Origin: a virus
Virus record (IMG/VR): IMGVR_UViG_3300003690_000003
Span: 32,001-96,000 of that record
Direction: 5' to 3' (one strand)
Length of the DNA: 64,000 nucleotides
Shown: positions 8,696-28,447 of the stretch, piece after piece
How the letters are laid out: each line of letters opens with the position of its first letter
How positions within the stretch are numbered: the first letter of the stretch is position 1
Program-made: the position numbers and the translations under genes
Notes under the pieces: generated by a model
Database searches by the model: none
Told to the model about the DNA's origin: nothing
What the model saw: only the letters and a program-made list of their open reading frames with translations

Positions 8696-11600
8696 CTATC
8701 CTAGTAGTTTCATGTTTCTTCTAACAGACCTAGTGCTGAACCCCCATTGCTCATTATAATCCAAACGAGCCATGTAGGGTCTATTGATAAACACTTGATC
8801 CTTACCTGGTATTATGCCCCAACATCTAATCTTTGTCAAGGTAGAATTACCGTCTATTGCAGTTATAACCAAATATGGTTTGCCGTTCTTTGTTTTGCGC
8901 TCTATAACCTCCCGAGGAATAAACCATACCAATCCTAGCTCTCGATCATATTCTGATATGGGTGGGATGTACAACTCATCCAGCCGGCTCTTAGTGTGGT
9001 GATCTAAGACTAGATCCATAGGGAAGATGCCCGTAAGACTGACAGTATTTTCAATCTCTTCTTCGTGCGAAAACTCACCTTCGGGCTTATATGTTTCTAT
9101 ATTCTCGTTGAACTTCTTCTTGTTCTTTGGGCGATCGACCGCTACCGATGACCAAAAATGTTTGCGTCCTGTAAAACGGTCATCTATTAAACTATCCATG
9201 GCTCCGCTTCGTACTAACACGTCCAATGCCTTCTTATTGAACTTAGAGTATACCACATCTGGATGGAATATGGCATCTTCAATCGTGTCGAAAGGACGAT
9301 TTTTTAATACCTGCTCAATGGCTGCGTCGCCAAGTCCCTTCAACGAAGATAATGGCTGCACTAGTGTCATACTGTCATTGGGATCGATTTCCCACACGTC
9401 AATCGACATATTAATGTCTGCCTTCTCAATATTAAATCCATAGCTCTTAGCAATATTGATTGCCTTCTCTTTTCTAGACTCGGGCTCTTTGTCAAGGAAT
9501 GCCGCCATCCATTCAGCAGGGTAGTAGTTTAGTAGCCATGCGCATTGGAATGAAATAATAGAATAAGAAACGGCATGCGATTTATTAAAGCCGTAGCCTG
9601 AGAAATACTCAAAAGTTTTCCATAGTCTGTCAGCCTGTGAAATTCTCATCCCTTTCTCCTGACAACCCTCCACGAACTTTGCATAAAGTTTGTTCTTAAC
9701 TTCGTGACCCTTTCCGGTCCCTTTCTTAGTAAGAACCTTACGAAGCATATTTCCCTCATCGAGACTAAGGTTTTTACCAAGTTTATGAGCGAGCAGCGCT
9801 ATCTGTTCCTGAAAAATAAGAAATCCAAATGTCTCTTGTGTTTCTTCTTTTACAATCTCATGAACGTGGTCGATGTTTTCCGGATGTCTCTTGGCTTCTA
9901 CATATTGTTCATGTACGTTAGCCGATAGCGGGCCCGGGCGATAGATGGCAGTGATGGCTGCGATATCAATCAAACTCTCTGGGCGCGCTCTCTTGCAGAA
10001 GTTTTGTGCCGGCTGTTCCGTGAACTGAAAGATACCGGCCCAGCTGCCTTTGTGAAAAATATTCTTATACACTTCTTGATTATCAAAATCAATCGTATCA
10101 GGGTGAAGATGTTTGTGGTAGAAGTTTTTAACGTCTTCAAATGTAGGGTTCTCCACCCCGTGGTGCCTACGTAGCACGTGCCGGATACACCCGTCAATCA
10201 TTCGAAGTGTAGAAAGCCCAAGCAAATCAAACTTAATGAACCCTAGCGGTTCTAGGTGTCGAACATTTTGACCTTCTGACCACGGTGCTTGGCGTACGCC
10301 TCCAGAATTAATGAGGGGCATACGCTCGTCCAAGTTCTCGGCTATAAGAACGCCGCCGGCATGCCGACTGCAGCTGCGTACCTGTCCTACCAACGCCTCC
10401 ACATGCGTCTTAATGCGTGGATGCTTTACCAGGAAGCCGCGCAGAGAGGGGCTGAACTCCATAACCTCTTCCCATGTAGGATTATAGACGCCAGCTTTAA
10501 TATCGTTCTTACGTTTGGCATCTTGAAGCGCTTCTCTTACCATCACACTTGTGACTTTGTTAACTTCTATAAATGGGATATCATAAAACTTTGAAATATC
10601 TTTAAGGAGCGACCTTAGCTGAAGGGTGTTCCAATTTGAGATAGGGACTACGGTGTTCTCACCCCAGTCTTTCGCGAGACGCTCTTTAAGTTCCATGGGC
10701 TCTGACACATCGAAGTCGATATCAGGGTAATCCGTAGCGTCGCGACGTAAAAATCTCTCAAACAGGAGTCCCCATCGAACCGGATCAACCTGTGTAATAT
10801 CCAGCACATAGGCTACCAGAGAACCTGCTGCTGAACCTCGGCCAGGTCCTGTAACCTGAACCTCATTAGCCTTGTCAACAATCGCTTTCATTGTCAAAAA
10901 ATACTTGCTGAATCCTCGATCCTTAATGACTTCAAGTTCCATTTTTAAGCGTGAGGTATATTTTTGATTCGTATGAAGGTCCTTCGTACGCAAACCATCG
11001 ATGGCTAGCTTTTGAAGGGCTTCTTCAGCGGTTGCCCCTTCGGGAACAACAAAGTCTGGTAACTTGATAGAAGTGTCGGGTTGAAAATCTTCGATGCGAT
11101 TAAAAGCAATATTGTGAGTTTCAGTAAGGGAACTCAATACAAGATCATCATCGTATTCTACCTCGCATGCTTCTGAATACTTTTTATAGGCTTCCCACAT
11201 TTGATCACCGTTTTTAGGGTAAAGTTCATACCCAATCGTATCAACATCTATAGGCAAATCATCTGACATCCACTCGGGTCTTTGCATACTCTTTCCAAGC
11301 CAGCCTAAGCGCTTGTATAACTCTCGATCTTTCCATGCGGTCGGATTTGGGTAGTGACTATCGGCCGTAGAAATTAAAGTAATCCCATATTCATCCTTCA
11401 TCTGGATGATATACTTGTTCAACTCATGTTGCTCGGGAACGCTGTTCCATTGTAGCTCTCCATACCAACGGTCTCCAAATATTCTTACCATGTTCTCGGT
11501 AGTTCCGCGCATTGCGTTCAGAATAGCCTCTTCGCCTTCTTCCCGATTGCTCCAATAGTCCCCCGCATAGATGCCCCCCAGACATGCGCTCGCTGCAATA

Positions 11601-12136
11601 ATCCCTTCGTTATATTTCTCCAACATTTCATAGTCTACACGGGGATAACGATAAAAGTTTTCTTGCTTGTAGCTTTGTGAGATTAGCTTGAAAATATTAT
11701 TTAAGCCTGTCTGATTTTGGGCCAAGAGAATCATGTGCCGCCGATGATTGAGAAGACTACGAATAGCTTTCTTACTTTCTCCTTCATCTTCGATCGTGGT
11801 GCCGCTCATTTCATTATTAAGTTTACGAGCCTCTTTCGCATCTGCTTTTATTCTATCATATTCTTCACGCCACTCGCTGATGCTGGGAATAAAATACGCT
11901 TCCACTCCATAGATGGCTTTAAACTTCTTACCCTCGGCTTGCATCTTTTTTAGGTGTAGAAATTGATGACTGAACCCATTCATATTTCCGTGATCGGTAA
12001 GCGCCAGTGCCTCCCCGCCATTCTCATAGGCAAAATCCATGTGTTCTGGTGGATATCCAATCGCATCAAAGATACTTCCTGCGACACTATGAGCATGTAG
12101 TCCAACAAATGGGATTGAGGGTTCTTTTCTATTCAT
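8696..12136 (-). CDS. dnaE: DNA polymerase III alpha subunit (family C)
   Basis: PHP domain (LHAHS, LTDHGN, GVEAY, TADSHY), GPGRGSAAGSLVAY, PDIDFD, HAGGV, KFDLLGL, YGFNKSHA. Confidence 0.97.
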   Translation of the reverse strand: MNRKEPSIPFVGLHAHSVAGSIFDAIGYPPEHMDFAYENGGEALALTDHGNMNGFSHQFLHLKKMQAEGKKFKAIYGVEAYFIPSISEWREEYDRIKADAKEARKLNNEMSGTTIEDEGESKKAIRSLLNHRRHMILLAQNQTGLNNIFKLISQSYKQENFYRYPRVDYEMLEKYNEGIIAASACLGGIYAGDYWSNREEGEEAILNAMRGTTENMVRIFGDRWYGELQWNSVPEQHELNKYIIQMKDEYGITLISTADSHYPNPTAWKDRELYKRLGWLGKSMQRPEWMSDDLPIDVDTIGYELYPKNGDQMWEAYKKYSEACEVEYDDDLVLSSLTETHNIAFNRIEDFQPDTSIKLPDFVVPEGATAEEALQKLAIDGLRTKDLHTNQKYTSRLKMELEVIKDRGFSKYFLTMKAIVDKANEVQVTGPGRGSAAGSLVAYVLDITQVDPVRWGLLFERFLRRDATDYPDIDFDVSEPMELKERLAKDWGENTVVPISNWNTLQLRSLLKDISKFYDIPFIEVNKVTSVMVREALQDAKRKNDIKAGVYNPTWEEVMEFSPSLRGFLVKHPRIKTHVEALVGQVRSCSRHAGGVLIAENLDERMPLINSGGVRQAPWSEGQNVRHLEPLGFIKFDLLGLSTLRMIDGCIRHVLRRHHGVENPTFEDVKNFYHKHLHPDTIDFDNQEVYKNIFHKGSWAGIFQFTEQPAQNFCKRARPESLIDIAAITAIYRPGPLSANVHEQYVEAKRHPENIDHVHEIVKEETQETFGFLIFQEQIALLAHKLGKNLSLDEGNMLRKVLTKKGTGKGHEVKNKLYAKFVEGCQEKGMRISQADRLWKTFEYFSGYGFNKSHAVSYSIISFQCAWLLNYYPAEWMAAFLDKEPESRKEKAINIAKSYGFNIEKADINMSIDVWEIDPNDSMTLVQPLSSLKGLGDAAIEQVLKNRPFDTIEDAIFHPDVVYSKFNKKALDVLVRSGAMDSLIDDRFTGRKHFWSSVAVDRPKNKKKFNENIETYKPEGEFSHEEEIENTVSLTGIFPMDLVLDHHTKSRLDELYIPPISEYDRELGLVWFIPREVIERKTKNGKPYLVITAIDGNSTLTKIRCWGIIPGKDQVFINRPYMARLDYNEQWGFSTRSVRRNMKLLG

Positions 12137-13046
12137 TATCGTTTTCTCCTATACTAATATGACCAGTGACAAATCCGTAGGGGCGTTTGATTTCCATATA
12201 ATGTCCTGATGTTATTAGTGTACAATATTGAGCCCACGTTGTCAAGTCGTAAAACCAAGGAAGTTCATTTATTATTGCGTCCGACTGGTCTGCCTCTTTA
12301 AATACATCTGACAACTTAAAATGTCTAGACTTTCTGCGCTCTTCGGGGGGAAGTTTTCTTTTGGGTATTTCTTCCTCATTAGTCGGAGGATAATAGGTAC
12401 GAGAGTTAGATTTAATCACATTTCGGGCGCGCCGCCATTCTTCCGTATCAAAGGTAAATCCCAAGGGAAGGCCATCACAAACCGTTTTACCTTCATGCGA
12501 AAAATAAAATGGTTTCTTTCCGCTTATCTTGCTTCTCGCCTTTTTAATCTCGTTTAAGCCACACACTCCAAAAGGAAAACTTACGTAGTAGCGATCAGGA
12601 ATAAGCCAACGTCCCAGCCGTCTACAAATCCAGTATGCAACGTTTGCACCATGAATAATAGACCACGCGTAGCAATCATATTTATCTCGATGTTTTGGAT
12701 GAATCGGTACATAATATATGGGAATTGATACATGACCTTCTTTGGGATATTTCACATAGCGCCCCGCTTCAATCGTATATAAATCCTCTACCCAATCTCC
12801 TACTTTGTGTTTGATAAGTGGTGCGATATCATCATTACAAACTATCCAGATGGTTTCACAGCCTGCGTAAGAACATTCGGCTACCGCAGCCTCAATCAAA
12901 CTAAAATCCGACGCTATCGGCATTAATGTATCGTGGCCTGGCAGATTAAACTCTCCGGTTGACGACGCCACTGGAATGATACCGGCTAAGTGAAAAGCTG
13001 TTTTGCTTTGTCGTGCTATGTCCATTCCTTTGACGCGTTGCAACAA
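12129..13046 (-). CDS. Divergent sugar-nucleotidyltransferase (GT-A/NTP_transferase)-like protein
   Basis: AGIIPVAS...LMPI...LIEAAVAECSYAGCETIWIV resembles the RmlA/GalU N-terminus, but the GxGTR loop is degenerate. Confidence 0.55.
   Translation of the reverse strand: MLQRVKGMDIARQSKTAFHLAGIIPVASSTGEFNLPGHDTLMPIASDFSLIEAAVAECSYAGCETIWIVCNDDIAPLIKHKVGDWVEDLYTIEAGRYVKYPKEGHVSIPIYYVPIHPKHRDKYDCYAWSIIHGANVAYWICRRLGRWLIPDRYYVSFPFGVCGLNEIKKARSKISGKKPFYFSHEGKTVCDGLPLGFTFDTEEWRRARNVIKSNSRTYYPPTNEEEIPKRKLPPEERRKSRHFKLSDVFKEADQSDAIINELPWFYDLTTWAQYCTLITSGHYMEIKRPYGFVTGHISIGENDNE
12217..12245 (-). promoter_or_regulatory. sigma70-type promoter for dnaE
   Basis: TTGACA-17 nt-TACACT on the minus strand, inside the 3' end of the upstream gene. 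Confidence 0.65.
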
Positions 13047-13783
13047 AAAATATTAGATGTTGTGTCCTCTCTTACAATAAATTCTTTTTTATGTTTGTGA
13101 AGCTCTCGTCTGTCGTGTTCCAGGACCAGATTAAGATTATGAACCTTATCACCAAACCGACGCTCAGGGCCTTGTAACCCATTCTCTTTTATTAACCTCA
13201 TTGCTGCGAACCTGGCTGCAGTCTCAGAATATTCAAACTCCCGCAGCTGATCACATGGAATATATGACTTGGTATAACAGTCTTTAAAAGAACCATCATT
13301 ACCATCTTTTCTGATGGATGGATAAAAAACGAGCTCTTTAACAAAGTTGCCGTGGCCCTCAACTGTGCCAGCGGTCTGTTTGGCTCCGCGTTTGATGTCA
13401 AACCAGTCATAAACAATATACTCTTCTACCTTTTCTTCTATGGCTAGCCCCTCTACCCTGTCGAGATCAAAGATATAAAGCTCCTCAAAACGAATCTTAA
13501 TCATCCGATAAAACTCTGTTATAACTTTGACGGTAGATTCCTCAACTCTAATACTTTCTATTTCCGAAGGAATAGGTGTCAATCCTCGCATGCCTAGCTC
13601 AAATGTCAAACGGTACCAGTTAGTCGCTTTTTCTTTTTCTTCTATAGGATGAGGAAGCGTCACCCCATTAATGAGAAGAGTGGCACCATTGGCCATGGCA
13701 AACTGGAGGGCCGGCAAACTGTATCCAACAACGAGTTTTCTACTTTTTAGTTCTGGTGTCTCAATCACTTTAGGCACGTTCAT
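13016..13783 (-). CDS. Hypothetical protein (degenerate Rossmann-like N-terminus)
   Basis: LVVGYSLPALQFA; tightly packed in the operon. Confidence 0.55.
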   Translation of the reverse strand: MNVPKVIETPELKSRKLVVGYSLPALQFAMANGATLLINGVTLPHPIEEKEKATNWYRLTFELGMRGLTPIPSEIESIRVEESTVKVITEFYRMIKIRFEELYIFDLDRVEGLAIEEKVEEYIVYDWFDIKRGAKQTAGTVEGHGNFVKELVFYPSIRKDGNDGSFKDCYTKSYIPCDQLREFEYSETAARFAAMRLIKENGLQGPERRFGDKVHNLNLVLEHDRRELHKHKKEFIVREDTTSNIFCCNASKEWT

Positions 13784-14063
13784 AGGTCGATAAGCTACCT
13801 ATAACATAGTTTTCAGTAATAGTGTGGTATACGTGGTTCTCATAAGTAATCTCACGAATCATGTGTGCTTCAACTACCAAAAGCCATCCCGGCTCCCATT
13901 GGCGTTGGCAATCGGCGGCGCCTCCATCGGGGCTCACGCGAACGACAGCGTAAGGCTCCACAGGTGCCTGATAATCTGAAGGAAGTAGTATAGTACCTTC
14001 TTCCGTTCTTTCATCTTCTATCAGTTCAATACTAATATTTCTATTATGTGGCAAAAATCTCAT
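13770..14063 (-). CDS. GroES/Cpn10-like co-chaperonin
   Basis: FLPHNRNISIE, TEEGTILLP mobile loop, ITENYVIG C-terminus; 97 aa. Confidence 0.7.
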   Translation of the reverse strand: MRFLPHNRNISIELIEDERTEEGTILLPSDYQAPVEPYAVVRVSPDGGAADCQRQWEPGWLLVVEAHMIREITYENHVYHTITENYVIGSLSTYERA

Positions 14064-14434
14064 TTTTTCTCCAAATCTTCTATGGCTGCTTTAATCGCTT
14101 CTTCCGCCAACACCGAACAATGTATTTTAACGGGAGGGAGCGATAATTCCTCTACAATATCGGTATTTTTAATTTCGGCCGCTTCTTTTAGGGTTTTACC
14201 CTTTATCCACTCTGTAGCTAAAGAAGACGCTGCTATGGCGGATCCGCACCCAAAGGTTTTGAACTTCGCATCGCAAATACGCCCATCATCACCTACTTTA
14301 ATCTGTAACTTCATAACATCCCCACATTCGGGAGCGCCTACAACGCCTGTCCCTACGCGCGCGTCTTCCTTATTAAAAGAGCCCATATTGCGGGGGCTAT
14401 TAAAATGATCTAAAACTTTTTTTGAATATGCCAT
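14060..14434 (-). CDS. iscU: Fe-S cluster scaffold IscU
   Basis: MAYSKKVLDHF.PRNMG, GAPECGDVMKLQI, FKTFGCGSAIA, LPPVKIHCSVLAE; AAGGAG SD before ATG 14434. Confidence 0.96.
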   Translation of the reverse strand: MAYSKKVLDHFNSPRNMGSFNKEDARVGTGVVGAPECGDVMKLQIKVGDDGRICDAKFKTFGCGSAIAASSLATEWIKGKTLKEAAEIKNTDIVEELSLPPVKIHCSVLAEEAIKAAIEDLEKK

Positions 14435-14453
14435 GATTTTCTCCTTATATTGA

Positions 14454-16862
14454 TTAGCCGCATTTGGCATGCCCGCAGGCTTTACAGGTTATACACCCTT
14501 CCATATATACCAGCCCTTCGGCGTTGCATTCCGAACAAGTCTTTTCAGAAGGACAGGAACCATTGATGATATATCCTTTAAGGACTCTCGCCACGCAGCG
14601 CGCAAAACTAAACATATCGCTATCGCGATCTTTTTGTAGTTGTTCTACAACATACTGAGTGTTGGCACCGTGGCGTAAGCCCAAAGATATCATACGTGTG
14701 AATGCAGAATGATTGGGATTATCAAAAACCTTTACCAAATCTTTTACTGTGAGAGTTTCACCATTTTTGCCAATCTTTAGATCATAGATAGAGTTCATTG
14801 TCTTGCGAGGATTTTTAACTAGAATGCCCTCTTCTCTGTTCCTAGGTATCTCAATTAAATTTGATAAACCGCCCATTACTTCATAAGGTCTACCATCCAT
14901 GAGTCCAACCATGATTACCCATTTTTCTCCCTGAATCGTAGCACGATGTATATTACAAGGCAGCTCGGTGGGACGCTTAGGCGCTGTATGATGGGGAAAT
15001 CGTTCTTTTCCTCTCTCCACCAATACACCAGATCGAGACCCCGCAACATATACGGTGATTCCTTTAAGCCCTTGCTTCCACCCCTCCATATAAATCTCGC
15101 CCACTACACTTGAAGGGGTTCCTTTAGGAAGATTGATAGTAGAACTAATGGAATGGTCAATGCTTCGTTGGATTACTGCTTGAACCTTTACCCGTTTCGT
15201 CCAATCAATATCTCCTGATTCTACAAAAAAACTAGGAGGGGTATCCTCTCCGAACAAATCTAAATACTCGCGCACGTTGTGGTGAAATACTTTATATTCT
15301 AGCCATTTATCTCCAAGTTCATCAGTATAATCTGCTTCCAAATCTTGTTCGTTGTGAGACAGCTTACGGCGCCGGATGTAAATATTTTTGAACACCGGCT
15401 CTAGGCCAGAAGAGGTTTGTGACAGAATGGAGACTGAGCCGGTAGGGGCGTTCGTGAGGATAGAAATATTGCGGCGTCCAAAAGTCTCAAATTTCTCGGA
15501 CAGATTTTTTGGGAGCCTTTGGATATATGGATTGTTTTTCTCTTTCTCCCAATCGAATACCGGAAAAGCGCCACGTTCCTGGGCTAAATAAACACTCTCC
15601 AGGTACGCAGTATCACGAATAGTCTCATAGATTTGCTTGATGATTTCGATGGCTTCATCCGAATCATAAGCTAGCTTGAGACGAGCCAGAGCATCTGCAA
15701 GGCCATGAGTACCAAGCCCCGTCCTGCGGCCGTTCACACACGCTGTATGCAAGTTATTCCATAGTTCTTTTTCGCTCTCCGTGTCACAAACCTCTTTGAT
15801 TGCTTCTAACTTTTCTAGCTCCAGTTCTACAAGGTCATCCGACAGACGCATACCCACAGACGTGATTTCTTTTAGTTTATTAAAATCAAAGACCGCTTTA
15901 TCACTGAACGGATTGCGTACTAAATGTTTAAGATTTAAAGAGATTAAACGACAACTATCGTAGGCCGAAAGGGGGATTTCTCCGCACGGATTCGTTGTAA
16001 GAGTGCGAAATCCTTCATCTTTATAACAGTCTGCTGGTAAATTCTCGATGATATTATCCCACATAAGAAGTCCTGGCTCTGCGGTGGTTGTTGCTGAATC
16101 TACTATCTTCTTCCATAGTTCCTCGGCTTGAATCTCGATTCTATGTGTAGGATCAGCCGAATCAACGGGAAACTGTAAAATAAATGATTCTTTATTTTCA
16201 ACTGCTCTCATGAAAGAATCGCTTATTTTCACCGATACGTTTGCCCCAGTCACCTTAGTAAGATTTTGTTTCATTACAACAAACTTCTCAATGTCGGGGT
16301 GTCGGATATCCATCGAGATCATCAGCGCGCCGCGGCGACCATTCTGGCCTATCATCCGACAAACATAAGAATAGAAATCTGCGAAGGACCAGGCGCCCGT
16401 AGTAGTGCGAGCGGAGTTATTTACTGGGGCATTTTCGGGGCGCAAGTTAGATATGTCAAGGCCAACACCACAGCGACGCTTAAATAAATTAGCCAAATCT
16501 TTTCCGGCATCGACGATCGAGCTAATATTATCGTTGGGAGATTCCACAACAACACAGTTGGATAAAGATACGTTAACATAATTATTTCCTATTCCCATCA
16601 TGGGCGAGCCTTGCGGCACAATATATTTAAAGTTTTTAAAATACGAAAAGATTTCTTCCTCAGTTAAGCGGTTACCTTCAAACTTATCTTCGATACGGGC
16701 AAACTCTCTGGCCAACCGCTTGTGCATATCGGTTGGAGTTTTTTCTATAAAATTCCCCTCGTTGTCTTGCAAACAATATTTAGTTATGAAAACATTGGTG
16801 GCTAGTTCATCCTCATTAAAATATGCTAGGGTCGCCTCTCGGACTTCTTCTACAGTATACAT
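14454..16862 (-). CDS. nrdJ: Class II (B12-dependent) ribonucleotide reductase
   Basis: SLSNC, TNPCGEIPL, APTGS, SISSTIN, KGITVY, C-terminal CxxC...EGC..CxxCG; no beta-subunit gene nearby. Confidence 0.9.
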   Translation of the reverse strand: MYTVEEVREATLAYFNEDELATNVFITKYCLQDNEGNFIEKTPTDMHKRLAREFARIEDKFEGNRLTEEEIFSYFKNFKYIVPQGSPMMGIGNNYVNVSLSNCVVVESPNDNISSIVDAGKDLANLFKRRCGVGLDISNLRPENAPVNNSARTTTGAWSFADFYSYVCRMIGQNGRRGALMISMDIRHPDIEKFVVMKQNLTKVTGANVSVKISDSFMRAVENKESFILQFPVDSADPTHRIEIQAEELWKKIVDSATTTAEPGLLMWDNIIENLPADCYKDEGFRTLTTNPCGEIPLSAYDSCRLISLNLKHLVRNPFSDKAVFDFNKLKEITSVGMRLSDDLVELELEKLEAIKEVCDTESEKELWNNLHTACVNGRRTGLGTHGLADALARLKLAYDSDEAIEIIKQIYETIRDTAYLESVYLAQERGAFPVFDWEKEKNNPYIQRLPKNLSEKFETFGRRNISILTNAPTGSVSILSQTSSGLEPVFKNIYIRRRKLSHNEQDLEADYTDELGDKWLEYKVFHHNVREYLDLFGEDTPPSFFVESGDIDWTKRVKVQAVIQRSIDHSISSTINLPKGTPSSVVGEIYMEGWKQGLKGITVYVAGSRSGVLVERGKERFPHHTAPKRPTELPCNIHRATIQGEKWVIMVGLMDGRPYEVMGGLSNLIEIPRNREEGILVKNPRKTMNSIYDLKIGKNGETLTVKDLVKVFDNPNHSAFTRMISLGLRHGANTQYVVEQLQKDRDSDMFSFARCVARVLKGYIINGSCPSEKTCSECNAEGLVYMEGCITCKACGHAKCG

Positions 16863-16863
16863 T

Positions 16864-18222
16864 TTATCTACTCCTGTCTTTAAACTTTTTATATTTTTCA
16901 GCCAGTTTTTGCTTTTGAACCAGGGGGCTTACTTCAATTTCATTGTCGGCGATTGGTTCTAGAATCTTTATAGATACTGTGCTGGTGTCCATATAGAGGG
17001 GGTATATTATACCGTCCGGACCATTCCTATTTTTAGCAATAAAAACCCTGCCTGTATTCCCCAGTTTATCATTGATAGTTCGCGAAATACTAAAAATAAA
17101 ATCTGAAACAAAGCACTTATTAAAGGCTTCTGATATGGATTCCATCGTTATCACTTCAGCATTAAGGCCCGAACGATTTGTTTGTGAGGCAGTCCATACG
17201 GGGCACCTGTACTCCTGGGCCAACCCACGAAGCTCTTCGTAGATAGATTCTAGCTCATTACGCTTCTCTCTTTGGGCTGTTATGGGGCGAAGCAAGTCGG
17301 CATAGTCTACTATAATCATATCAATCGGAACATCCTTCATGCGAAGACGCTCCAAATGTGTTTTAATAGTGTGAGTGGACGCTGACTTCGTTGGATATTC
17401 CTTAATAATTAAGCGACCTTCGATACCTTGAACCTCTTCGTAAACTTTTTCTTTAAATGTAGCTAAATCACCTAACTCAATCCTCGTCAGACAGCTATCA
17501 TAACGCGAGCCGACGACGGTGTCTTGAAGTTCTAAAGTATAATGTATCACCGTCTTGCCTTCTTTAATGGCTTGAGTACCTAAATGCACAAGAGCCATGG
17601 ACTTGCCCACCCCCGTAGGGGCAATAACAACTCCTAGCTCTTTTTGTCCTAGTCCTCCTTGACATATATCATCTATGAGCGGCCATCCCGTTGCGACAGG
17701 ATTGCGGAACTTAGGTTTAAACCTCTCTTCGAAATCCTTTTTCCAATCATAGCCGGCATCGTTATCTGCACCAAGCTTGAGAGACGCATTAATCAACAAC
17801 GCAATTTCATCAAAGGATGAACTTTGCAAAAGACCGATGGACTTAATCATTGCGGACTTTAGATTTTGCTTGCGACAAAAATCCAGGGCAGTATCTTTAA
17901 TATACTCCTGGTTTTCTAGGTGTGTCGACATGACGCGGGCGTAATATTCCCTAACTTGCTGTTGCGTCATCTCATTTTCATCATCAATACCTGAACGCAA
18001 AATAGTCCCGAGGATTTGGCGTGAGGGATGAACCCCGTACTTTTGTCGGTACTGAAATATTACTTTGAGGAAGAGTTTTAAATAACGAAGCTCTAAAAAA
18101 TTAATATCAAGAACTTCTTCTATTTGATCTGCGAAAGGACGATCATCTAAGATGACCATACACAACTGCTCTTGGAATGATTTGCCGTAGCGAGAAAAAG
18201 TTATCTTCTCTTTTGATTCCAT
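16864..18222 (-). CDS. Replicative helicase (T4 gp41/DnaB family)
   Basis: Walker A APTGVGKS, IIKEYPT, IIVDYADL, WTASQTNR, KNRNG. Confidence 0.93.
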   Translation of the reverse strand: MESKEKITFSRYGKSFQEQLCMVILDDRPFADQIEEVLDINFLELRYLKLFLKVIFQYRQKYGVHPSRQILGTILRSGIDDENEMTQQQVREYYARVMSTHLENQEYIKDTALDFCRKQNLKSAMIKSIGLLQSSSFDEIALLINASLKLGADNDAGYDWKKDFEERFKPKFRNPVATGWPLIDDICQGGLGQKELGVVIAPTGVGKSMALVHLGTQAIKEGKTVIHYTLELQDTVVGSRYDSCLTRIELGDLATFKEKVYEEVQGIEGRLIIKEYPTKSASTHTIKTHLERLRMKDVPIDMIIVDYADLLRPITAQREKRNELESIYEELRGLAQEYRCPVWTASQTNRSGLNAEVITMESISEAFNKCFVSDFIFSISRTINDKLGNTGRVFIAKNRNGPDGIIYPLYMDTSTVSIKILEPIADNEIEVSPLVQKQKLAEKYKKFKDRSR

Positions 18223-18237
18223 GGGTACCTCTCTCTA

Positions 18238-18266
18238 ATCCTACTAGTTTTTGAGCGCTTTGTCAA
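18238..18266 (-). promoter_or_regulatory. sigma70-type promoter for helicase/RNR
   Basis: TTGACA-17 nt-TAGGAT. Confidence 0.6.
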
Positions 18267-19209
18267 CGGCAAATCGGTTCATAGTCGCAAATAGATCGTC
18301 CCAGTTAAAAACCCCGAAACCATCTTTATTCATCATTTTGATGAACTCGGTTCTATTGAACTCATATCCCAAATTGTTAAATACATAATCGACCTTCTGT
18401 CTACTTTGGCGAGAGAGATTGGGATCGTACAGCTGCATCAACTTGTAGTTCCTTATAACTAGGTTTTTGTTCTCGATAACGCGATCAAAAAATACTACTT
18501 TGCTGTCAACTTTTTCGCAATAATCTATAACCTCTTGAAATGAATACTCTTTGTCCTCAAATAAAAATGGTAATCTTTTTTTGACGGTAGCCAAGCCGGC
18601 TCCAGGAACCCCTTTAAGATTGTCTGACTTATCTCCCGCGATAGCTCGCGCCATGGCAAAGTTGCGCGGATGAATACCAAACTTCTCTAGAATATTCTTC
18701 TGAGTAAGGACTTCTTTCTGGATAGGACGGAACAAAACCGTTTCACCATCACAGAGCTGAATGAAATCTTTATCACTGGAAACCACTACCTTCTGCCATC
18801 CCTTAAATTTATCTGATTGGGTTATGTACGCGATTACATCATCTGCTTCTACCTCGGGAAACATAAACTGCGGGATGGGCAGCTCATTAAGATATTCCAG
18901 AAGACGCGTCTGCTGCCACACCTTGTTCTCTGTCTCTTCGTCAGGAGTAAGGTTGCTCTCGCGGTTAAGACGGATGGGCTTGCGCCCCTCCTTATATTCC
19001 TTCACGATGGCTCGGCGCTTAGCCGATCCTCCTGGACCATCCCAAACTACCACCACCATGTCAGGCTTGTTCTCTCGAACAAGCTTTTGGAGGATCTTCA
19101 AGAATCCTTTAACACCACCGATGGGTTGCCCGTTGGTAGACATACTGGGATCTACAATATATGCCCTGAAATATGCATTCAGCGCATCAATAATCATTAC
19201 TCTTTTCAC
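18244..19209 (-). CDS. 5'-3' exonuclease/flap endonuclease (Pol I N-domain / T4 RNase H family)
   Basis: IIDALN, VVWDG, YKEGR, EADDVIA, SSDKDFIQL, GDKSDNLKGVPGAG. Confidence 0.93.
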   Translation of the reverse strand: MKRVMIIDALNAYFRAYIVDPSMSTNGQPIGGVKGFLKILQKLVRENKPDMVVVVWDGPGGSAKRRAIVKEYKEGRKPIRLNRESNLTPDEETENKVWQQTRLLEYLNELPIPQFMFPEVEADDVIAYITQSDKFKGWQKVVVSSDKDFIQLCDGETVLFRPIQKEVLTQKNILEKFGIHPRNFAMARAIAGDKSDNLKGVPGAGLATVKKRLPFLFEDKEYSFQEVIDYCEKVDSKVVFFDRVIENKNLVIRNYKLMQLYDPNLSRQSRQKVDYVFNNLGYEFNRTEFIKMMNKDGFGVFNWDDLFATMNRFAVDKALKN

Positions 19210-19592: not shown

Positions 19593-19597
19593 ACCAT

Positions 19598-19625
19598 AGT
19601 ATACACTATGGGCTGTGGGTGTCAA
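19598..19625 (-). promoter_or_regulatory. sigma70-type promoter, probably yielding a near-leaderless deaminase mRNA
   Basis: TTGACA-16 nt-TATACT ending 5 nt before the ATG. Confidence 0.6.
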
Positions 19626-19639
19626 GGATTAAAAGAGGC

Positions 19640-20262: not shown

Positions 20263-20267
20263 TTGTT

Positions 20268-20618: not shown

Positions 20619-20627
20619 TGCCCTCTC

Positions 20628-20774
20628 CTAAAGTAAGGAACAGTGTCCAAGAACAAGTCCAACAGCAAGAGCTGCAGCACTATTCGCCGCCAAAAGAACA
20701 TAAAGTTCACGGGGGGCGCGTAGTAAAGCAACGTTCTTTGCCAGAGATAAACTATCTAAAAGTAATTTCTTCAT
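20628..20774 (-). CDS. 48-aa hydrophobic peptide
   Basis: Manual translation MKKLLLDSL...AAALAVGLVLGHCSLL; AAGGA SD; downstream of a late-type motif. Confidence 0.55.
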   Translation of the reverse strand: MKKLLLDSLSLAKNVALLRAPRELYVLLAANSAAALAVGLVLGHCSLL

Positions 20775-20819
20775 TATACTATTCCTTATAAGTCGACATC
20801 AAGTGTCAATAATAAATAG

Positions 20820-21929
20820 TCACTCATCGTCTAAAGTATAATGGTCTTCTGCGTTCCCCGTGCGATTATCAAACTTCATTATGATCTCTTCATCCATGAT
20901 ATCATATACGCGTTCCCTAAACCGCTCATCTTCTAGCTTATCCACCCAGTGAGCTGCCTGAAACTTTTCTTCGGACCCATCGTCATGTACCAAAGCATAC
21001 CAAGCACCCGTTTGCTTAAGGTTCTCCGAAGACTTAATAGCTTCGAGCCAGGATTCCTCGTCCTGAACTCCAACATCTTCTCCCCATAAAATCTTAAAAG
21101 CGCAGTTACGACCCTGCGTCCCAAAGCGAGATTTCTCTAGCTTAACCTTAACTTCCGATCCGATACGGAAACCATTATTGTCCAGAACAAAACTAGCTTT
21201 AGCCTTCCGTCCCGTCAGCCACACACGCAGAGAGTAGGCATAAATCATTGCCTTCCCTCCCGGAGTGACATAGGGAGTGGTCATGGCTTCGGCTGGAAAT
21301 CTTGTGATATTAGTCTTCAACTGGTTGAGTACTAAGAAGGATGACTGGCTGTTCGCAATGGGAATGGTTAGCTTAGACATACCCTTGGCGAGGATGCGGG
21401 CTTTCACTGCCATCGACGATTGAGGATTAAAATCTCCCTCCACATCCGAAATGGACGGCGTAAGTGCTAGTGAATCCCAGATGAACAACATTTTCTCGGC
21501 TCCGCTATTAAGGATTTGTTCAATAGTTTCAAGCACTTGCTCGACTGACTGGACCTGAACATAAATAAGTGTCTCCAAATCGCACCCGGCACGTTCTAGG
21601 AAGGCCGGATCGATTGCAGACTCCGCATCCATGTAGATTACATTCATACCCATTCGCTGGGCATTGCCGGCGATCTGTGCGGCCATGAAAGACTTACCTG
21701 TGGACTCCAACCCGGCGATTTCTGAAATCTTTCCGACAGGAATACCCGCAAGCTTGCCGCGGCAGATAATACTATCGAGCCAACGAGAACCTGTAGGAAT
21801 CCACTCTTTAACTTCTGTTGGGTTCTCTTCTTTAAGGTTATATGCGACTTCCATTCCGGAAGCCTTGTTAATAAGGGAACGCAGTTCTCCTACGGATACT
21901 GTCCCTACTTTTGATTTTGATTTTGCCAC
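20820..21929 (-). CDS. recA: RecA/UvsX recombinase
   Basis: IPTGS, EIAGLESTGKS, YMDAE, IWDS, LNQLK, TPGGKA. Confidence 0.95.
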   Translation of the reverse strand: MAKSKSKVGTVSVGELRSLINKASGMEVAYNLKEENPTEVKEWIPTGSRWLDSIICRGKLAGIPVGKISEIAGLESTGKSFMAAQIAGNAQRMGMNVIYMDAESAIDPAFLERAGCDLETLIYVQVQSVEQVLETIEQILNSGAEKMLFIWDSLALTPSISDVEGDFNPQSSMAVKARILAKGMSKLTIPIANSQSSFLVLNQLKTNITRFPAEAMTTPYVTPGGKAMIYAYSLRVWLTGRKAKASFVLDNNGFRIGSEVKVKLEKSRFGTQGRNCAFKILWGEDVGVQDEESWLEAIKSSENLKQTGAWYALVHDDGSEEKFQAAHWVDKLEDERFRERVYDIMDEEIIMKFDNRTGNAEDHYTLDDE

Positions 21930-22873
21930 TATTTTCTCCCAATCATTAGTATTTCTCGTGCCTTCTTGGCCTCATATAAAGTGTTGCCGTCTTCATCAAT
22001 GCCGACTTGCTTTCTACGGCCCGCTGTATATGTAACATCGAAGTATACAATATCATTCTTTCCTTTTCGGCTTTCGAAGAAGTCATCTTCTTCATCTTCA
22101 ACCACCCTATTAGATAGCATAACATAGGCACCAAGTTTTGTCGAGTCATTTAAAAATTTAATCACGCGCTCCTGCCATACATCATCAAAATCCACTCCAT
22201 ATTGTGTAAACGATCCGCGATAGGGAGGATCAAGAAAAACGTATGAGTTTTCCTTAATGTAGGGCATTAGTTTCCCAAAATCGCCTGATAATAGTATCGT
22301 CTTCCGCAAGGCTTTAGACCACTCTAAAACATTCTGTTTGTCATATACTTTTTTGTCATGATTTAACAGCCCAGAGGGAGTAGCATAACGATCTCCCGAC
22401 TCCTTCGTAGTCTGCCAAATGCCATTAAATCCTGTCTTCAAAAGAAAATATAATACCGCATCTTCCTCTGTATTGCTCCATTTTTTATGGTCATGTATAT
22501 ATTCATCTAAAAGATTATAATAAAACTTCTTTCTTTCCCCTCCGACAAGCTCTTTATCCGGCTTAAAAAAACGAGAGTACGCAACATGGTGTTCGTTGTT
22601 CAGTGGAAGATACTCGGCCTCCAGCTCATCTACTTTGGTTAGAAAATTATTACAGTCCCCCCGAATGGTCCTATATATATTCATAATGTACTTGTTGTAA
22701 TCGTTTAAGATAAAGGTGGCATTTTTATTTCTATTGTATACCCATACAAACATAGCGCCAGCACCCATAAAGGGTTCAACATAATGCTCGACTGTTCTGG
22801 GAAGAACATCTCTTACTTTATACTTCTTAATGAGGCGTGTCTTGCCGCCTGCCCACATGAACAAAGGTTTCAT
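21929..22873 (-). CDS. Dam-type (D12, alpha class) N6-adenine DNA methyltransferase
   Basis: WAGGK, YVEPFMGAGA, ILND, FLDPPY, MLSN. Confidence 0.93.
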   Translation of the reverse strand: MKPLFMWAGGKTRLIKKYKVRDVLPRTVEHYVEPFMGAGAMFVWVYNRNKNATFILNDYNKYIMNIYRTIRGDCNNFLTKVDELEAEYLPLNNEHHVAYSRFFKPDKELVGGERKKFYYNLLDEYIHDHKKWSNTEEDAVLYFLLKTGFNGIWQTTKESGDRYATPSGLLNHDKKVYDKQNVLEWSKALRKTILLSGDFGKLMPYIKENSYVFLDPPYRGSFTQYGVDFDDVWQERVIKFLNDSTKLGAYVMLSNRVVEDEEDDFFESRKGKNDIVYFDVTYTAGRRKQVGIDEDGNTLYEAKKAREILMIGRK

Positions 22874-23511
22874 TACTTACGTAGGCCCGTGTCTAGAGTG
22901 CGCAACTTTTCCAATAGCTGCCTGCGCTGAGGTTCATCATCAATATCAATATCGTTTAGAAGTTGTCCCACAAGGGCCTTGATGGGCTTGTTGAGGTGGC
23001 AACGAAGCGCTTTACGAATATGTTCCACTACGTGTTGTTTAAAAGTGTCATCACACTGTACATTTTCGAGCACAGTCACACCAGCAAAGCGATTAGTATC
23101 AATAAACGGGCCGGTGGCACCCCCCGCATCCTTCTTCAGGAACCCAACACCGCCGCATGATATAAAAAGTTGCTCCGGCTCTACAAAAGTAAGATAATGA
23201 TCACCGCGCTGGCAAGCGTTGGCGCGGGCTGTCTGAAACTTATCTTCAAAAATCGCGATCAAGTGCCACTGGCCCGCTGGATCCTTCCACCAAAGAAATC
23301 CGCCATCAGCTCTATATTCCTGTGAGTTCCCTTTGGCAGTTCTTGAGTACGGGCACTTCCCGTCTGTGATCTGTTCAATTGAAAGAGATCCCGTCAGTTT
23401 GTACTCTGGCCCTAATTCTCTTACGGCGCTAACAATGATTTGTCTATGTCTTTCCTCTGATTCCTTAGACTTTGCGGTTGTAAACCCCTCTGTTCCCTTC
23501 GGCGCTGTCAT
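22873..23511 (-). CDS. Putative EcoRI/MunI-like PD-(D/E)xK restriction endonuclease
   Basis: ADGGFLWWKDPAGQWHLIAIFEDKFQ...ANACQR parallels the EcoRI catalytic segment as I recall it (PDGG...W....AEAKHQ...GNAIER); directly abuts the MTase. Confidence 0.6.
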   Translation of the reverse strand: MTAPKGTEGFTTAKSKESEERHRQIIVSAVRELGPEYKLTGSLSIEQITDGKCPYSRTAKGNSQEYRADGGFLWWKDPAGQWHLIAIFEDKFQTARANACQRGDHYLTFVEPEQLFISCGGVGFLKKDAGGATGPFIDTNRFAGVTVLENVQCDDTFKQHVVEHIRKALRCHLNKPIKALVGQLLNDIDIDDEPQRRQLLEKLRTLDTGLRK

Positions 23512-23528
23512 TTTTTTCCCTAAATATT

Positions 23529-23568
23529 TGAGGGCCCTATACCCCGGAGCCCCCCGCTGGGGGGATCC
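23529..23568 (-). repeat. GC-rich intergenic double-hairpin element, copy B
   Basis: Sense CCCCCC-AGC-GGGGGG overlapping GGGGGCTC-CGGGGTATA-GGGCCCTC. Confidence 0.55.
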
Positions 23569-24045
23569 TTACCACTCTACTGAAAGGGTTCCGTTTTTGG
23601 TTGGAATGTTTACCTTCCACCCATTCACAACACTCGGGTGGTCTACAATCTGTGAGACGGCCACCTTCACCGTCGCCTTCACATCGCAACGGCCGCGTTT
23701 ATAGTCATAACGCTCGGTATTCGTTTCCAGCCAATCATAGTCATAGTGCGTAGTACGCAACACTTCGGCGAGATATTCCTGAAAAGTAAAATCGTACCCA
23801 TACTCGTCAAGCAAGCCGTCGTCGCGCATATCTTGCAAAATATCGGCCGTCCCGTGTGTGGTGGCTACGGTTACTCCGCTGGTGGCCAAAAGCCCTGCAA
23901 GAGTCTCAGCTGTTGTTGTCTCAAGAAGAGCATCATCAATGTAATCGTCTGTATAGTGAAATACGTCAGCACCATCTGTATGTATTAGTGTCGCAACGGC
24001 ATCCGGTGCCAGATCTACCGTCTTTAAAACTTCGTTTAAACTCAT
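23569..24045 (-). CDS. Hypothetical acidic protein
   Basis: 158-aa ORF in gene order. Confidence 0.7.
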   Translation of the reverse strand: MSLNEVLKTVDLAPDAVATLIHTDGADVFHYTDDYIDDALLETTTAETLAGLLATSGVTVATTHGTADILQDMRDDGLLDEYGYDFTFQEYLAEVLRTTHYDYDWLETNTERYDYKRGRCDVKATVKVAVSQIVDHPSVVNGWKVNIPTKNGTLSVEW

Positions 24046-24066
24046 TTTATCTCTTTCGTATTTATG

Positions 24067-24101
24067 TGAGGCCCCTGTAACCCCGGGCCTCCCTGCGGGA
24101 G
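24067..24101 (-). repeat. GC-rich intergenic double-hairpin element, copy A
   Basis: Sense CTCCC-GCA-GGGAG overlapping GAGGCCC-GGGGTTACAG-GGGCCTC. Confidence 0.55.
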
Positions 24102-24113
24102 TGGAGGGCTAGG

Positions 24114-24896
24114 CTATAGAGCGCCCAGCTCAGCAAATGCAGCGTCTACCGCATTAGGCTCTTCATCAGTGGTCGTAGAGGTGCCACCAAACTTTTGGGT
24201 CTCGGATGAAACCGCCTCGGGGTCCGCTACACCCGCGTTTACAAAGGTGTCAAGCAGCGCGCCCACTTCTTCAGCAGTCTTGCGCTCGAACAAGTCTTCC
24301 AGTTCTGGAATACTCTCAAGCAGTTCCGAACACTTCTCCGGCGTCATATCCTCACATAACTCGGTGCTACGTCGACGAGGTACAAGCTTTGTCTGCGGGA
24401 ACGAAGCACCTACGGGCTTTCCATAAGTCATGGTAAGATCGGTGCCGGTCTCAGGATCGGTGATATCACCATACTCTGGATTAAGCACGAGACTGAGAAG
24501 ATTCTCATATGCCATCTTGCCATACCCCCAGATACGTACACCCTTATCTTCTTCGCCACGTACGAACACCGGCGAGAAGAAGCGCGGCCGAACGAATAGG
24601 CTCTTAGCCACCTTCTTACTTTCATCATCATTGTTGTCTACACCATCGCGCCAAAGCTGCGAAGCAAACTCACACACGGGGCATTCCTCCGCATAGTTAC
24701 GCTTGGGACATAAAAATCCCGGAGTATTTCCGAGGTTATAATGGAACCACTTCTCCTTGAAGGGATCTCCATCGGGAGTCGGAACAATACGAATGTCCTG
24801 GTTCCCATCTTCGGGACGCCAAAAGTTGTCCCTATCGCCGCCTTGTCCTTTGAGAGTGGCTAGCTTTGCTCTCATTTTTTCTAAATCGATACCCAT
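24114..24896 (-). CDS. Single-stranded DNA-binding protein (T4 gp32-like)
   Basis: FWRP...IRIVP, Zn ligands H...CP...CPVC, DITDPETGTD, acidic tail. Confidence 0.85.
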   Translation of the reverse strand: MGIDLEKMRAKLATLKGQGGDRDNFWRPEDGNQDIRIVPTPDGDPFKEKWFHYNLGNTPGFLCPKRNYAEECPVCEFASQLWRDGVDNNDDESKKVAKSLFVRPRFFSPVFVRGEEDKGVRIWGYGKMAYENLLSLVLNPEYGDITDPETGTDLTMTYGKPVGASFPQTKLVPRRRSTELCEDMTPEKCSELLESIPELEDLFERKTAEEVGALLDTFVNAGVADPEAVSSETQKFGGTSTTTDEEPNAVDAAFAELGAL

Positions 24897-24927
24897 TTTA
24901 TTTTCCTTTCACTGGGTTAGAGTACGA

Positions 24928-25785
24928 TCAGCCAATATCCTGATCGTCTAGTTCATCTATATATGATTGTACCACAGAACTATATTTAACGCAATAACAA
25001 TATTTCTGTTCGTAGTTCGTTTTGTATACTCCGTAGGACACATTAATCTTTTCTTCTACTTTGTCTTTGACATATTCTTTAATTTTGTTAAAGAGTGTTC
25101 CATCTGTCTTCAAATCATTCTCATTGATACCATAATAGTATACCACGTCCCTCAGCATTTGCAAGTCATAAAACCATTTTTCTTCATTTTTTTCTACATC
25201 CACCACTCCTAGTGTAGATATCCTAGCAATCTCATGAGGTTCTGTAAATGTCCCCAAAATTGGTTCGGAGTTTTTAAAAACGTTTACCATGTGTAACGTG
25301 TTTACAACTGCCTGATTTATAGTATCATAATAGCTTATGATCGGAATGTCTCCGATGCTTTTTTCTATCTGTCCGTTGGAAACCAGGTAGATTCTTTCAA
25401 ACATTCCTGATCTAGCGTACTCTTGAAAAACGTTCTTCACGATCCTCTCCTGTACCGCTTCAGTTTCACTTAGAAGCGAGACATCCGGCTCTATGTACAG
25501 AACGGTTACAGAAACGTCTGAGAGTTGCTCTAAGAGCCTCAGAGCGGCGCCTGTGATGCTCCCCGCGCCACATAGGACGAAGATAACATCCCCGGAGATC
25601 TGTTGCAAGTCTTTTTTGAAGTTTGGGAACTTTTTTTCGTACTCTTCATGAGATTTCTGCTTTGGAATATCGAAACAGTTTTCTCCGACAAGCCCGGTAT
25701 CAAACTTATAGATTTTGTACTGAGGAAACTTCGAAAAGCAGTCCGCAATTGCGCAACCGGCTTTCCCTAAGCCAATAATGTTCAT
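24928..25785 (-). CDS. Divergent tubulin/FtsZ-fold protein
   Basis: IIGLGKAGCAIA (T1), CGAGSITGA (degenerate T4 loop), YIEP, YLVSN, YDTINQAV, in FtsZ order. Confidence 0.7.
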   Translation of the reverse strand: MNIIGLGKAGCAIADCFSKFPQYKIYKFDTGLVGENCFDIPKQKSHEEYEKKFPNFKKDLQQISGDVIFVLCGAGSITGAALRLLEQLSDVSVTVLYIEPDVSLLSETEAVQERIVKNVFQEYARSGMFERIYLVSNGQIEKSIGDIPIISYYDTINQAVVNTLHMVNVFKNSEPILGTFTEPHEIARISTLGVVDVEKNEEKWFYDLQMLRDVVYYYGINENDLKTDGTLFNKIKEYVKDKVEEKINVSYGVYKTNYEQKYCYCVKYSSVVQSYIDELDDQDIG

Positions 25786-26972
25786 TATAGGTTTAAATCC
25801 TTCATATCTCCGAAGTTTTTACCGAGAGTTGTGTTTACCTTGTAATCACCGAAAGGAGTCGTACCAAAAATCTTTATTAGCTCTGGAATAATCTGACGCT
25901 CTCCGTGTTTTAAATCTATAACAATCGAATCGTGCATCATAAAAGCTATGTTGCTTTCTTTCTCTTGTAAGCTATTGTGAATCTCAACTGCTTTACTCAA
26001 AACCAAATCGCTCGTTGTGCTCTGTATAATATAGTTCAAAGCGTGATGGTTGTCAACCCCTTTTATGTCTCTCCCAAACTCTGTGTGTATATCATGACCG
26101 TTCCAGTACTTTTCTTTAACGAGGCTTTTATCGTAAAAGGTCTCAGCTTTCTTATTCTTTCGATGAGAATACAGCCACTCAAAAATCTTCTGCTTTGCCT
26201 GCGGTCGGTCAAGCTTGCCGCCATAAATGTTCTGAATATTCCACTCGTGAATATCGTCCTCGGGCTGTGGTGTTCCCGAGAGGCCCAACAGTGTCCTTAC
26301 TTCGGCCGCGTTATAATCCAACTCCAAAAACCAATCATTTTGAGGATGAAGACATCCACGAAAGTCTCTATGCAGAGTCAAAATAGGAAATGTCTTCGGC
26401 ATCGTTGTGAGTCTTCCTGTCACAGTCCCGAATGGATTATAATCGCATATCCAATCAACTTCTTGAAGTTTCTTGGCAAAGTTTTTTCCTTTCACCGACA
26501 CCAATTTTGTCATGATGGGTTCCGTATCTATATTCAAGGGTTGTTCTTTAAGATCCCCAAGCATTTTAATAACATCCACCATAAAATCATGATTAAGGGG
26601 CCGCTTGTGACTCATTAAAATATGCTTTGTAATCTCATTCTTGGCATCACAAAGTTCATAGAGGAAAAACTCTGGGATCAAATTATAGATACAAGTCTCA
26701 TTTAAATTAATCTTGGCTATTTGAAATGACTTGAGGAAGGCATGCAGCCGTTTGGTAATGCTATCCCATACAGGCTTGAGTTCTGGCGGGCAGGCTTCGG
26801 CTAATGTGAGACCCCCGTTATAAATGCGTGCGTATTCTACGTGGCGCTCCTTTAAAGAAGGAGAGTAGTACCATGTCTTGTCGGCAGTTTGCGGGAGATC
26901 TTGATAATAAAGTTCATTATCAGCGTAATATCCTAAACACTCGCCTTTGCTATCCAGCGTTTGAAAATACAA
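25785..26972 (-). CDS. Minimal family-A DNA polymerase (palm/fingers only)
   Basis: TVTGRL, motif A LDYNAAEVR, DIH, motif B RPQAKQKIFEWLY, NYIIQSTTSD, motif C MHDS; 395 aa. Confidence 0.85.
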   Translation of the reverse strand: MYFQTLDSKGECLGYYADNELYYQDLPQTADKTWYYSPSLKERHVEYARIYNGGLTLAEACPPELKPVWDSITKRLHAFLKSFQIAKINLNETCIYNLIPEFFLYELCDAKNEITKHILMSHKRPLNHDFMVDVIKMLGDLKEQPLNIDTEPIMTKLVSVKGKNFAKKLQEVDWICDYNPFGTVTGRLTTMPKTFPILTLHRDFRGCLHPQNDWFLELDYNAAEVRTLLGLSGTPQPEDDIHEWNIQNIYGGKLDRPQAKQKIFEWLYSHRKNKKAETFYDKSLVKEKYWNGHDIHTEFGRDIKGVDNHHALNYIIQSTTSDLVLSKAVEIHNSLQEKESNIAFMMHDSIVIDLKHGERQIIPELIKIFGTTPFGDYKVNTTLGKNFGDMKDLNL

Positions 26973-28444: not shown

Positions 28445-28447
28445 GGC

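Follow-up and report, generated by a model that had tools for sequence, protein, structure and literature searches.

The window analysed here is a 64,000-bp stretch of DNA, bases 32001–96000 of the 170,861-bp IMG/VR record IMGVR_UViG_3300003690_000003, which is estimated to be 94% complete. Its source is a marine T4-like phage of ~171 kb with a bacterial-type DnaE and a compact family A DNA polymerase predicted to lack an exonuclease, hereafter mini-PolA. The mini-PolA is co-inherited with DnaE and with a flap nuclease. Nearly all window genes are carried by the minus strand. An earlier interpretation made from the letters of the window (the sequence-only reading) had described DnaE, a PolA of 395 amino acids (aa), a 5'-3' exonuclease, a gp41-like helicase, a gp32-like SSB and RecA. 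All the open reading frames (ORFs) that it named were found on the minus strand where it had placed them, and Pfam searches confirmed these six assignments. The features of the locus are as follows.

8696..12136, minus strand: DnaE (Pol III alpha, 1146 aa), the 'regular' polymerase; four Pfam domains, intact PHP metal site
12129..13783, minus strand: two genes without family match (305 and 255 aa), overlapping dnaE and directly upstream of it; kept in relatives
14454..16862, minus strand: RNR large-subunit homologue with a C-terminal TSCPD domain (PF02867, E = 5e-90; TSCPD)
16864..18222, minus strand: DnaB/gp41-type replicative helicase (PF03796, DnaB_C, E = 2e-19; TIGR00665; phage_DnaB)
18244..19209, minus strand: stand-alone 5'-3' exonuclease / flap endonuclease, 321 aa (PF02739, E = 1e-31)
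20820..21929, minus strand: RecA-family recombinase (PF00154, E = 3e-38; TIGR02012, E = 2e-42), syntenic in relatives
24114..24896, minus strand: gp32-like SSB (PF08804, E = 2e-13)
24928..25785, minus strand: compact tubulin/FtsZ-superfamily protein, 285 aa (AlphaFold2 model and structure matches)
25785..26972, minus strand: mini-PolA, 395 aa, TTG start, divPolA1-like (PF00476, AlphaFold2 model, homologue alignment)
63655..64000, minus strand: C-terminal end of an Mre11-Rad50 fusion (Metallophos and AAA_23/SMC_N)

Sequence, selection and predicted fold of the mini-PolA

By its motifs, profile score and fold, the mini-PolA is a member of the family A DNA polymerases (PF00476, 46.5 bits at a cut-off of 34.3); it also matched the phrog_17 DNA polymerase (E = 9e-18). 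The sequence contains TGR (185–187), motif A (D219-YNAAE224-VR), motif B (R256/K260/F264/Y268) and motif C (H347-D348-S349). Conservation was counted across 83 diverse aligned members. D219 of motif A, D348 of motif C, K260, D240 and D353 were invariant; R256 and R187 (of TGR) were retained in 82 members, Y268 in 80 and Q317 in at least 80. No DxE exonuclease motif is conserved in this alignment. Position 224, the steric gate, is occupied by E or D in 80 of the 83 members, as expected of a DNA polymerase and not of an RNA polymerase. Across the family, the HD of motif C precedes S, A or C, and HDE is never among the commonest residues. The motif C of T7 RNA polymerase is HDS. An RNA polymerase or primase identity was set aside on account of the conserved DNA-type steric gate and the separate DnaG-type primase of the phage. 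For the same two reasons, de novo priming, a role entertained in the sequence-only reading, is unlikely.

A search of 5.8 billion proteins returned about 2,687 matches to the mini-PolA, the best 120 of which were nearly all 395–400 aa long and came from marine metagenomes (Tara, JGI, ENA). When representatives at 50% identity were searched exhaustively, 776 matches were obtained, 236 of them below E = 1e-30, and lengths were again about 390–400 aa. A tblastn search of a phage collection that possibly lacks close relatives yielded no hit at E = 1e-5, and only weak matches to ordinary PolA at E = 1. Relative to its closest relatives, the mini-PolA showed nonsynonymous divergence (dN) of 0.11–0.18 and saturated synonymous divergence (dS); the single computable dN/dS was 0.07. 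The mini-PolA is intact and under purifying selection. The PolA equivalog model TIGR00593 gave 23.9 bits at a cut-off of 600, and the protein does not qualify as a bacterial Pol I by this model.

The structure predicted by AlphaFold2 with the homologue alignment had a mean predicted local distance difference test (pLDDT) score of 96.2 and a predicted template modelling (pTM) score of 0.92. Residues 1–391 of the model superposed on the Bst and Taq large fragments with Z values of about 25 and a root mean square deviation of about 4 Å over 350–374 residues. In Foldseek, comparable E-values were obtained for Pol theta, the apicoplast Pol, Bst, Klenow and Pol nu. The model thus describes a complete, shrunken Klenow-like fold. 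It begins in the vestigial exonuclease region of Bst (Bst residue 316). Residues ~1–62 are modelled as three strands with loops, the thumb as two long helices (63–85 and 101–121), and the fingers are shortened beyond the O helix; these limits are a reading of the model's secondary structure and of the overall alignment, not of a residue-level superposition. The sequence-only reading had left the N-terminal ~150 aa unrecognised. Because the model aligns to the Bst and Taq fragments from residue 1, the N-terminal ~175 aa are predicted to consist of a 3'-5' exonuclease vestige (about 60 residues) and a shortened thumb, with no novel domain.

The divPolA1 class and other known systems

Yutin et al. 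(2024, Virol J, PMC11348598) described 'divPolA1' in 14 phages of 155–190 kb, including the Flavobacterium phage vB_FspM_immuto, contigs from freshwater and three bins of the Global Ocean Virome (MK892584, MK892766 and MK892784). The palm of this divergent PolA is conserved, its thumb is truncated and its exonuclease is dead, and its gene is followed by conserved replication genes (PMC11348598). These phages also possess a 'regular' polymerase, which belongs to family A, B or C and is located near GroEL/GroES and nucleotide-metabolism genes; the regular polymerases occur in variable contexts and have been swapped among the three families, while the divPolA1 context is conserved (PMC11348598). 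In the literature library searched, no further paper mentions divPolA1.

The mini-PolA profile aligned with the immuto divPolA1 in hhalign at a probability of 98.75% (E = 1.5e-16, 283 columns), and BLASTP gave 26% identity over 203 aa (E = 3e-9). The gene order in the immuto record, PolA (441 aa)-x-x-SSB-recombinase-5'3'exo-DnaB-RNR, is that of the window, and the regular PolA of immuto lies beside GroES/GroEL. Given this homology, the shared downstream gene order and the coexisting regular polymerase, the mini-PolA belongs to divPolA1. In both phages a small divergent PolA with conserved palm residues heads a series of SSB, RecA, 5'-3' exonuclease, DnaB and RNR genes, with the regular polymerase elsewhere near GroEL; the genome size and the myovirus chassis are also shared. 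The immuto protein is longer (441 versus 395 aa), and it is followed by two small ORFs where the window has the tubulin-like gene. Moreover, the regular polymerase of divPolA1 phages may be of family A, B or C, whereas in the marine clade sampled here it was DnaE in every record reaching far enough. The class and its genomic context have thus already been published (PMC11348598) and are here extended to a large marine lineage.

With bacterial Pol I, the mini-PolA shares the polymerase fold, motifs 2, A, B, 6 and C, and coexistence with a Pol III alpha replicase; furthermore, the phage nuclease most resembles the N-terminal domain of Pol I. The phage system differs in that nuclease and polymerase are separate genes, the exonuclease domain is predicted to be reduced to ~60 residues, thumb and fingers are short in the model, and motif C is HDS. 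The sequence-only reading had spoken of a 'split' Pol I. We found the two genes 6.6 kb apart, with the SSB and RecA genes between them, a polymerase that is only remotely Pol I-like, and no sign of gene fission. Owing to this distance and to the low TIGR00593 score, a literal split is unsupported. A Pol I acting in trans is a reasonable reading of the gene neighbourhood.

A split PolA is known from cyanophage S-SBP1, which has a T7-like enzyme divided into exonuclease and polymerase parts (Czernecki et al. 2023, NAR, PMC10201439). As in the window, its PolA gene encodes the polymerase part only; unlike in the window, the 3'-5' exonuclease half lies in the adjacent gene, as a result of a frameshift (PMC10201439). 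The 487-aa ORF upstream of the mini-PolA shows no polymerase or exonuclease signal, and the mini-PolA models as a complete fold. We asked whether this ORF could supply the other half of a split PolA and found the idea unsupported: it has no family match, its median identity among relatives is 27%, and the mini-PolA fold is complete alone.

Barbavirus divPolA2 is likewise a second, divergent, exonuclease-less PolA beside a regular polymerase, but its N-terminal domain is globular and novel, its gene context varies, and it resembles RNA polymerases (PMC11348598). The mini-PolA differs in its predicted Klenow-like N-terminus, its fixed replication context and its DNA-type steric gate.

DnaE, the replication module and neighbouring genes

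At least 598 IMG/VR loci encode a relative of the mini-PolA, and synteny was read from 80 of them. All genes of the module lie on one strand in the order o107-o106-miniPolA-tubulin-like-SSB-(x)-RecA-(dCMP deaminase)-nuclease-DnaB-RNR, and gene counts drop only where contigs end. The mini-PolA is the first recognisable gene of this vertically inherited replication-recombination module, after two fast-evolving genes. The tubulin-like gene overlaps that of the mini-PolA by one base and follows it in 76 of the 80 loci; many relatives have a gap of ~300 bp, possibly with a small ORF, between the two. Its 285-aa product retains the N-terminal GxGxxG and GxGxISG signature, and its AlphaFold2 model (pLDDT 90.9) matched CetZ and TubZ with Z values of 23.3 and 21.3, respectively, over 255–273 aligned residues. 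The SSB position is kept in 71 of the loci, with a median identity of 72%. The nuclease occurs in the same module as the mini-PolA wherever the relatives' contigs extend far enough. Its best NCBIfam match, at 144.6 bits, fell on positions 2–244 of the 889 of a Pol I profile, in the N-terminal 5'-nuclease part, and its acidic active-site residues are invariant among 26 homologues. The RNR large-subunit homologue, also syntenic in relatives, closes the module.

For the co-occurrence of the two polymerases, we sampled 25 long records from two sub-clades, with 36–50% identity to their queries. Distant IMG/VR relatives were collected with an alignment query, since single-protein queries gave 0 and 1 loci. 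DnaE was present in 20 of the 25 records, including all eight with a completeness of at least 90%; family B polymerases were absent (0/25), and the mini-PolA was the sole PolA. The five records that lack DnaE end early: on the side where dnaE would be expected, no more than about 10 kb of contig separates the mini-PolA from the end, whereas in the other records the distance to dnaE is 13–21 kb. Considering the eight near-complete records and the early contig ends in these five, the pairing of mini-PolA and DnaE is effectively obligatory in the marine clade. In the window, dnaE lies about 14 kb downstream of the mini-PolA. The coexistence of two polymerase families, which the sequence-only reading had put forward, and the tight co-inheritance with DnaE and the nuclease were thus borne out, whereas a literal split and an unrecognised N-terminal domain were not.

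That reading had also assumed a T4-like phage lacking gp43. The virion genes are indeed T4-like (T4 baseplate, gp19 tube, phrog_138 major head, portal, prohead protease), and a family B polymerase is absent from the whole 94%-complete record as well as from the 25 long relatives. Six-frame searches of the record found neither a family B polymerase nor a second PolA. At the replisome level the T4-like label fails: PF00136, PF02916 and PF13177 had no match in the record, and a gp43-type polymerase, a gp45 clamp and a gp44/62 loader were not found.

All four DnaE domains scored above cut-off, namely PF02811 (PHP), PF07733 (DNA_pol3_alpha), PF17657 (finger) and PF14579 (HHH_6), with E-values from 8e-51 to 1e-9. 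All nine PHP metal-ligand positions agreed with those of Taq Pol III alpha in the alignment. A Pfam search of the genome, where a divergent version may hide in unannotated ORFs, revealed no epsilon-type exonuclease. Intact PHP ligands and the missing epsilon gene fit a self-proofreading replicase; PHP exonuclease activity is known from Thermus and mycobacterial DnaE1. The canonical clamp-binding motif QL[SD]LF was not found in DnaE; a conserved LTGIF stretch occurs past the HhH domain. Between the same genome pairs, DnaE is 65–73% identical, SSB, RecA and DnaB 72–75%, the nuclease 64% and the mini-PolA 46–50%. In one relative (G024), dnaE was matched in three open frames (336, 302 and 526 aa) over ~5.6 kb, at about 20.0–25.6 kb; this suggests that the gene is either interrupted by insertions, for example an intein, a homing endonuclease or an intron, or broken.

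Upstream of dnaE, the 305-aa gene (12129–13046) is present in 10 of 10 relatives (38–48% identity) and the 255-aa gene (13016–13783) in 9 of 10 (28–41%). Neither product matched Pfam, PHROG or NCBIfam. By eye, the start of the 305-aa protein resembles a nucleotidyltransferase motif (GIIPVA...IWIVCNDD). An accessory function for DnaE, or one in DNA modification, is conceivable for these proteins. Two ORFs of 487 and 962 aa upstream of the mini-PolA (26981–31336, minus strand) are syntenic in relatives, with median identities of 27–30% as compared with 47% for the mini-PolA. The 487-aa ORF had no match in Pfam, PHROG, NCBIfam or the PDB, and PDB sequence searches with the 962-aa, 305-aa and 285-aa proteins gave none. 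The 487-aa and 962-aa products may be host-interaction or fibre proteins bordering the structural module.

Far from the main replication module, the phage encodes a 1051-aa Mre11-Rad50 fusion (genome 95655–98810), which extends past the window end, and an adjoining DnaG-type primase of 313 aa (genome 98822–99763). The primase was recognised by Zn_ribbon_DnaG (CHC2 zinc ribbon, 31.9 bits), DNAG_N and a weak Toprim match.

A D12-class N6-adenine methyltransferase gene (PF02086, 21929–22873, minus strand) lies between SSB and RecA in the window; it was not at that site in any of the 80 loci. A second N6-adenine methyltransferase, Dam (PF05869), lies at 5952–6485 (minus strand). The genes after dnaE encode a PurA-like protein, a dUTPase, Dam and a GuaC-like protein, with GroEL at genome 30080–31651. 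The PurA-like gene (7550–8542, minus strand) specifies a short adenylosuccinate synthetase of 330 aa, and the GuaC-like gene (4662–5696, minus strand) a CBS-less protein of the GMP-reductase/IMPDH family. A Z-genome system (PurZ/DpoZ) was rejected, as PurA models scored 274 bits, PurZ 134 (cut-off 300) and DpoZ 20.8 (cut-off 500). The PurA-type score and the accompanying GuaC-like gene suggest that the pair converts G nucleotides to A nucleotides and does not serve a 2-aminoadenine genome. An unusual proteostasis set comprises two ClpP homologues, GroEL and HSP20, besides the prohead protease (window 1603–2196 and 6948–7550; genome 30080–31651 and elsewhere).

Possible roles of the two polymerases

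From gene content and conservation, we infer a division of labour between DnaE and the mini-PolA, with a role of the latter in maturation. In the best explanation, to which we give an about even chance of being right, DnaE is the main replicase, and the mini-PolA, an active, proofreading-less polymerase of the divPolA1 kind with predicted low processivity, performs Pol I-like short-patch synthesis together with the flap nuclease. DnaE would copy the genome and proofread through its PHP site, probably with the beta clamp and clamp loader of the host, since neither was found in the phage genome. The mini-PolA would most likely carry out short-patch DNA synthesis to which DnaE is poorly suited. 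The flap nuclease would remove RNA primers, and the mini-PolA would fill the resulting gaps, a maturation of Okazaki fragments by two proteins; gap filling in recombination intermediates is also possible. An accessory character of the mini-PolA is consistent with the exonuclease of ~60 residues and the two-helix thumb of the model, and with an evolution faster than that of the other replisome genes. Co-folding of the mini-PolA and the nuclease scored 0.00, which counts neither for nor against binding.

Several observations weigh against this assignment. The search for clamp and loader genes over the full genome, which the sequence-only reading had proposed, ended without either: genome Pfam searches, from which divergent versions may hide, detected no beta clamp, gp45 clamp, clamp loader or ligase, and the rest of the maturation pathway would need to be supplied by the host. 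The mini-PolA gene adjoins the SSB/RecA side of the module and not the nuclease gene. Motif C is HDS or HDA, not HDE, family-wide. Finally, the regular polymerase of immuto-like relatives is a full-size PolA or a PolB, and yet divPolA1 is retained (PMC11348598). Either enzyme could fill gaps, and the retention argues for a task more special than plain gap filling. One such task could be to extend 3' ends that arise from recombination or R-loops, after which DnaE would take over.

A role in initiation or restart, which we regard as possible but clearly less probable than gap filling, would follow this line. The mini-PolA would extend 3' ends in D- or R-loops that the RecA, SSB and Mre11-Rad50 of the phage generate; it would open the duplex for loading of DnaB and then give way to DnaE, in analogy to Pol I at ColE1 origins or to the recombination-dependent replication of T4. 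The conserved order of mini-PolA, (tubulin-like), SSB and RecA in most of the 80 loci agrees with it, as do the Mre11-Rad50 fusion and the phage's own primase, and it would account for the retention of divPolA1 beside regular polymerases of any family (PMC11348598). However, strand displacement is unreadable from sequence, no origin was identified, and the co-conserved flap nuclease is just as compatible with maturation. The mini-PolA could serve both roles.

A genuine two-family fork appears unlikely. Here, the mini-PolA would be an obligatory part of the fork in this marine lineage and not a clean-up enzyme; it could extend RNA primers or recombination-derived 3' ends and hand over to DnaE, in the manner of Pol alpha, or of DnaE in Bacillus, and it might be organised jointly with the co-conserved miniature tubulin. 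If true, this would be a minimal polymerase-switching replisome evolved independently in phages.

Damage tolerance or repair carries a similarly small probability. An error-prone, exonuclease-less PolA like Pol theta or Pol nu would serve lesion bypass or end joining in sunlit surface water. It would lack proofreading, it evolves faster than the other replisome genes, its relatives come from marine habitats (Tara sources), and Pol theta and Pol nu appear among the top Foldseek rows at the E-value level of the Pol I fragments. These matches are, however, no better than those to Bst and Taq, and the gene forms part of the core replication operon and occurs in the relatives as universally as dnaE.

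It is still less probable that the mini-PolA is the actual fork polymerase, alone or on one strand, with DnaE auxiliary or strand-specific. The conserved replication context of divPolA1, as opposed to the swapped regular polymerases (PMC11348598), would agree with such a role, but an enzyme predicted to have no exonuclease and a truncated thumb is a poor candidate for copying 170–200 kb, and DnaE is more conserved, keeps its PHP site and is present in all near-complete relatives. An inactive or decaying PolA remnant, marked in relatives by variable length as the sequence-only reading had imagined, is refuted almost beyond doubt: the small size and weak Pfam score are all that speak for it, against a fixed length of ~395–400 aa, invariant catalytic residues, a dN/dS far below 1 and a confident, complete predicted fold.

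Carried by at least 598 loci in IMG/VR and by thousands of proteins from metagenomes, the combination of a bacterial-type replicase and a stripped-down PolA is a fixed trait of abundant uncultured marine myophages. At about 395 aa, the mini-PolA is among the smallest naturally conserved Klenow-type polymerases, which gives it enzymological and biotechnological interest, and the Flavobacterium phage immuto is a cultured relative that makes its function testable. The pair of enzymes would be a natural example of polymerase division of labour in a virus.

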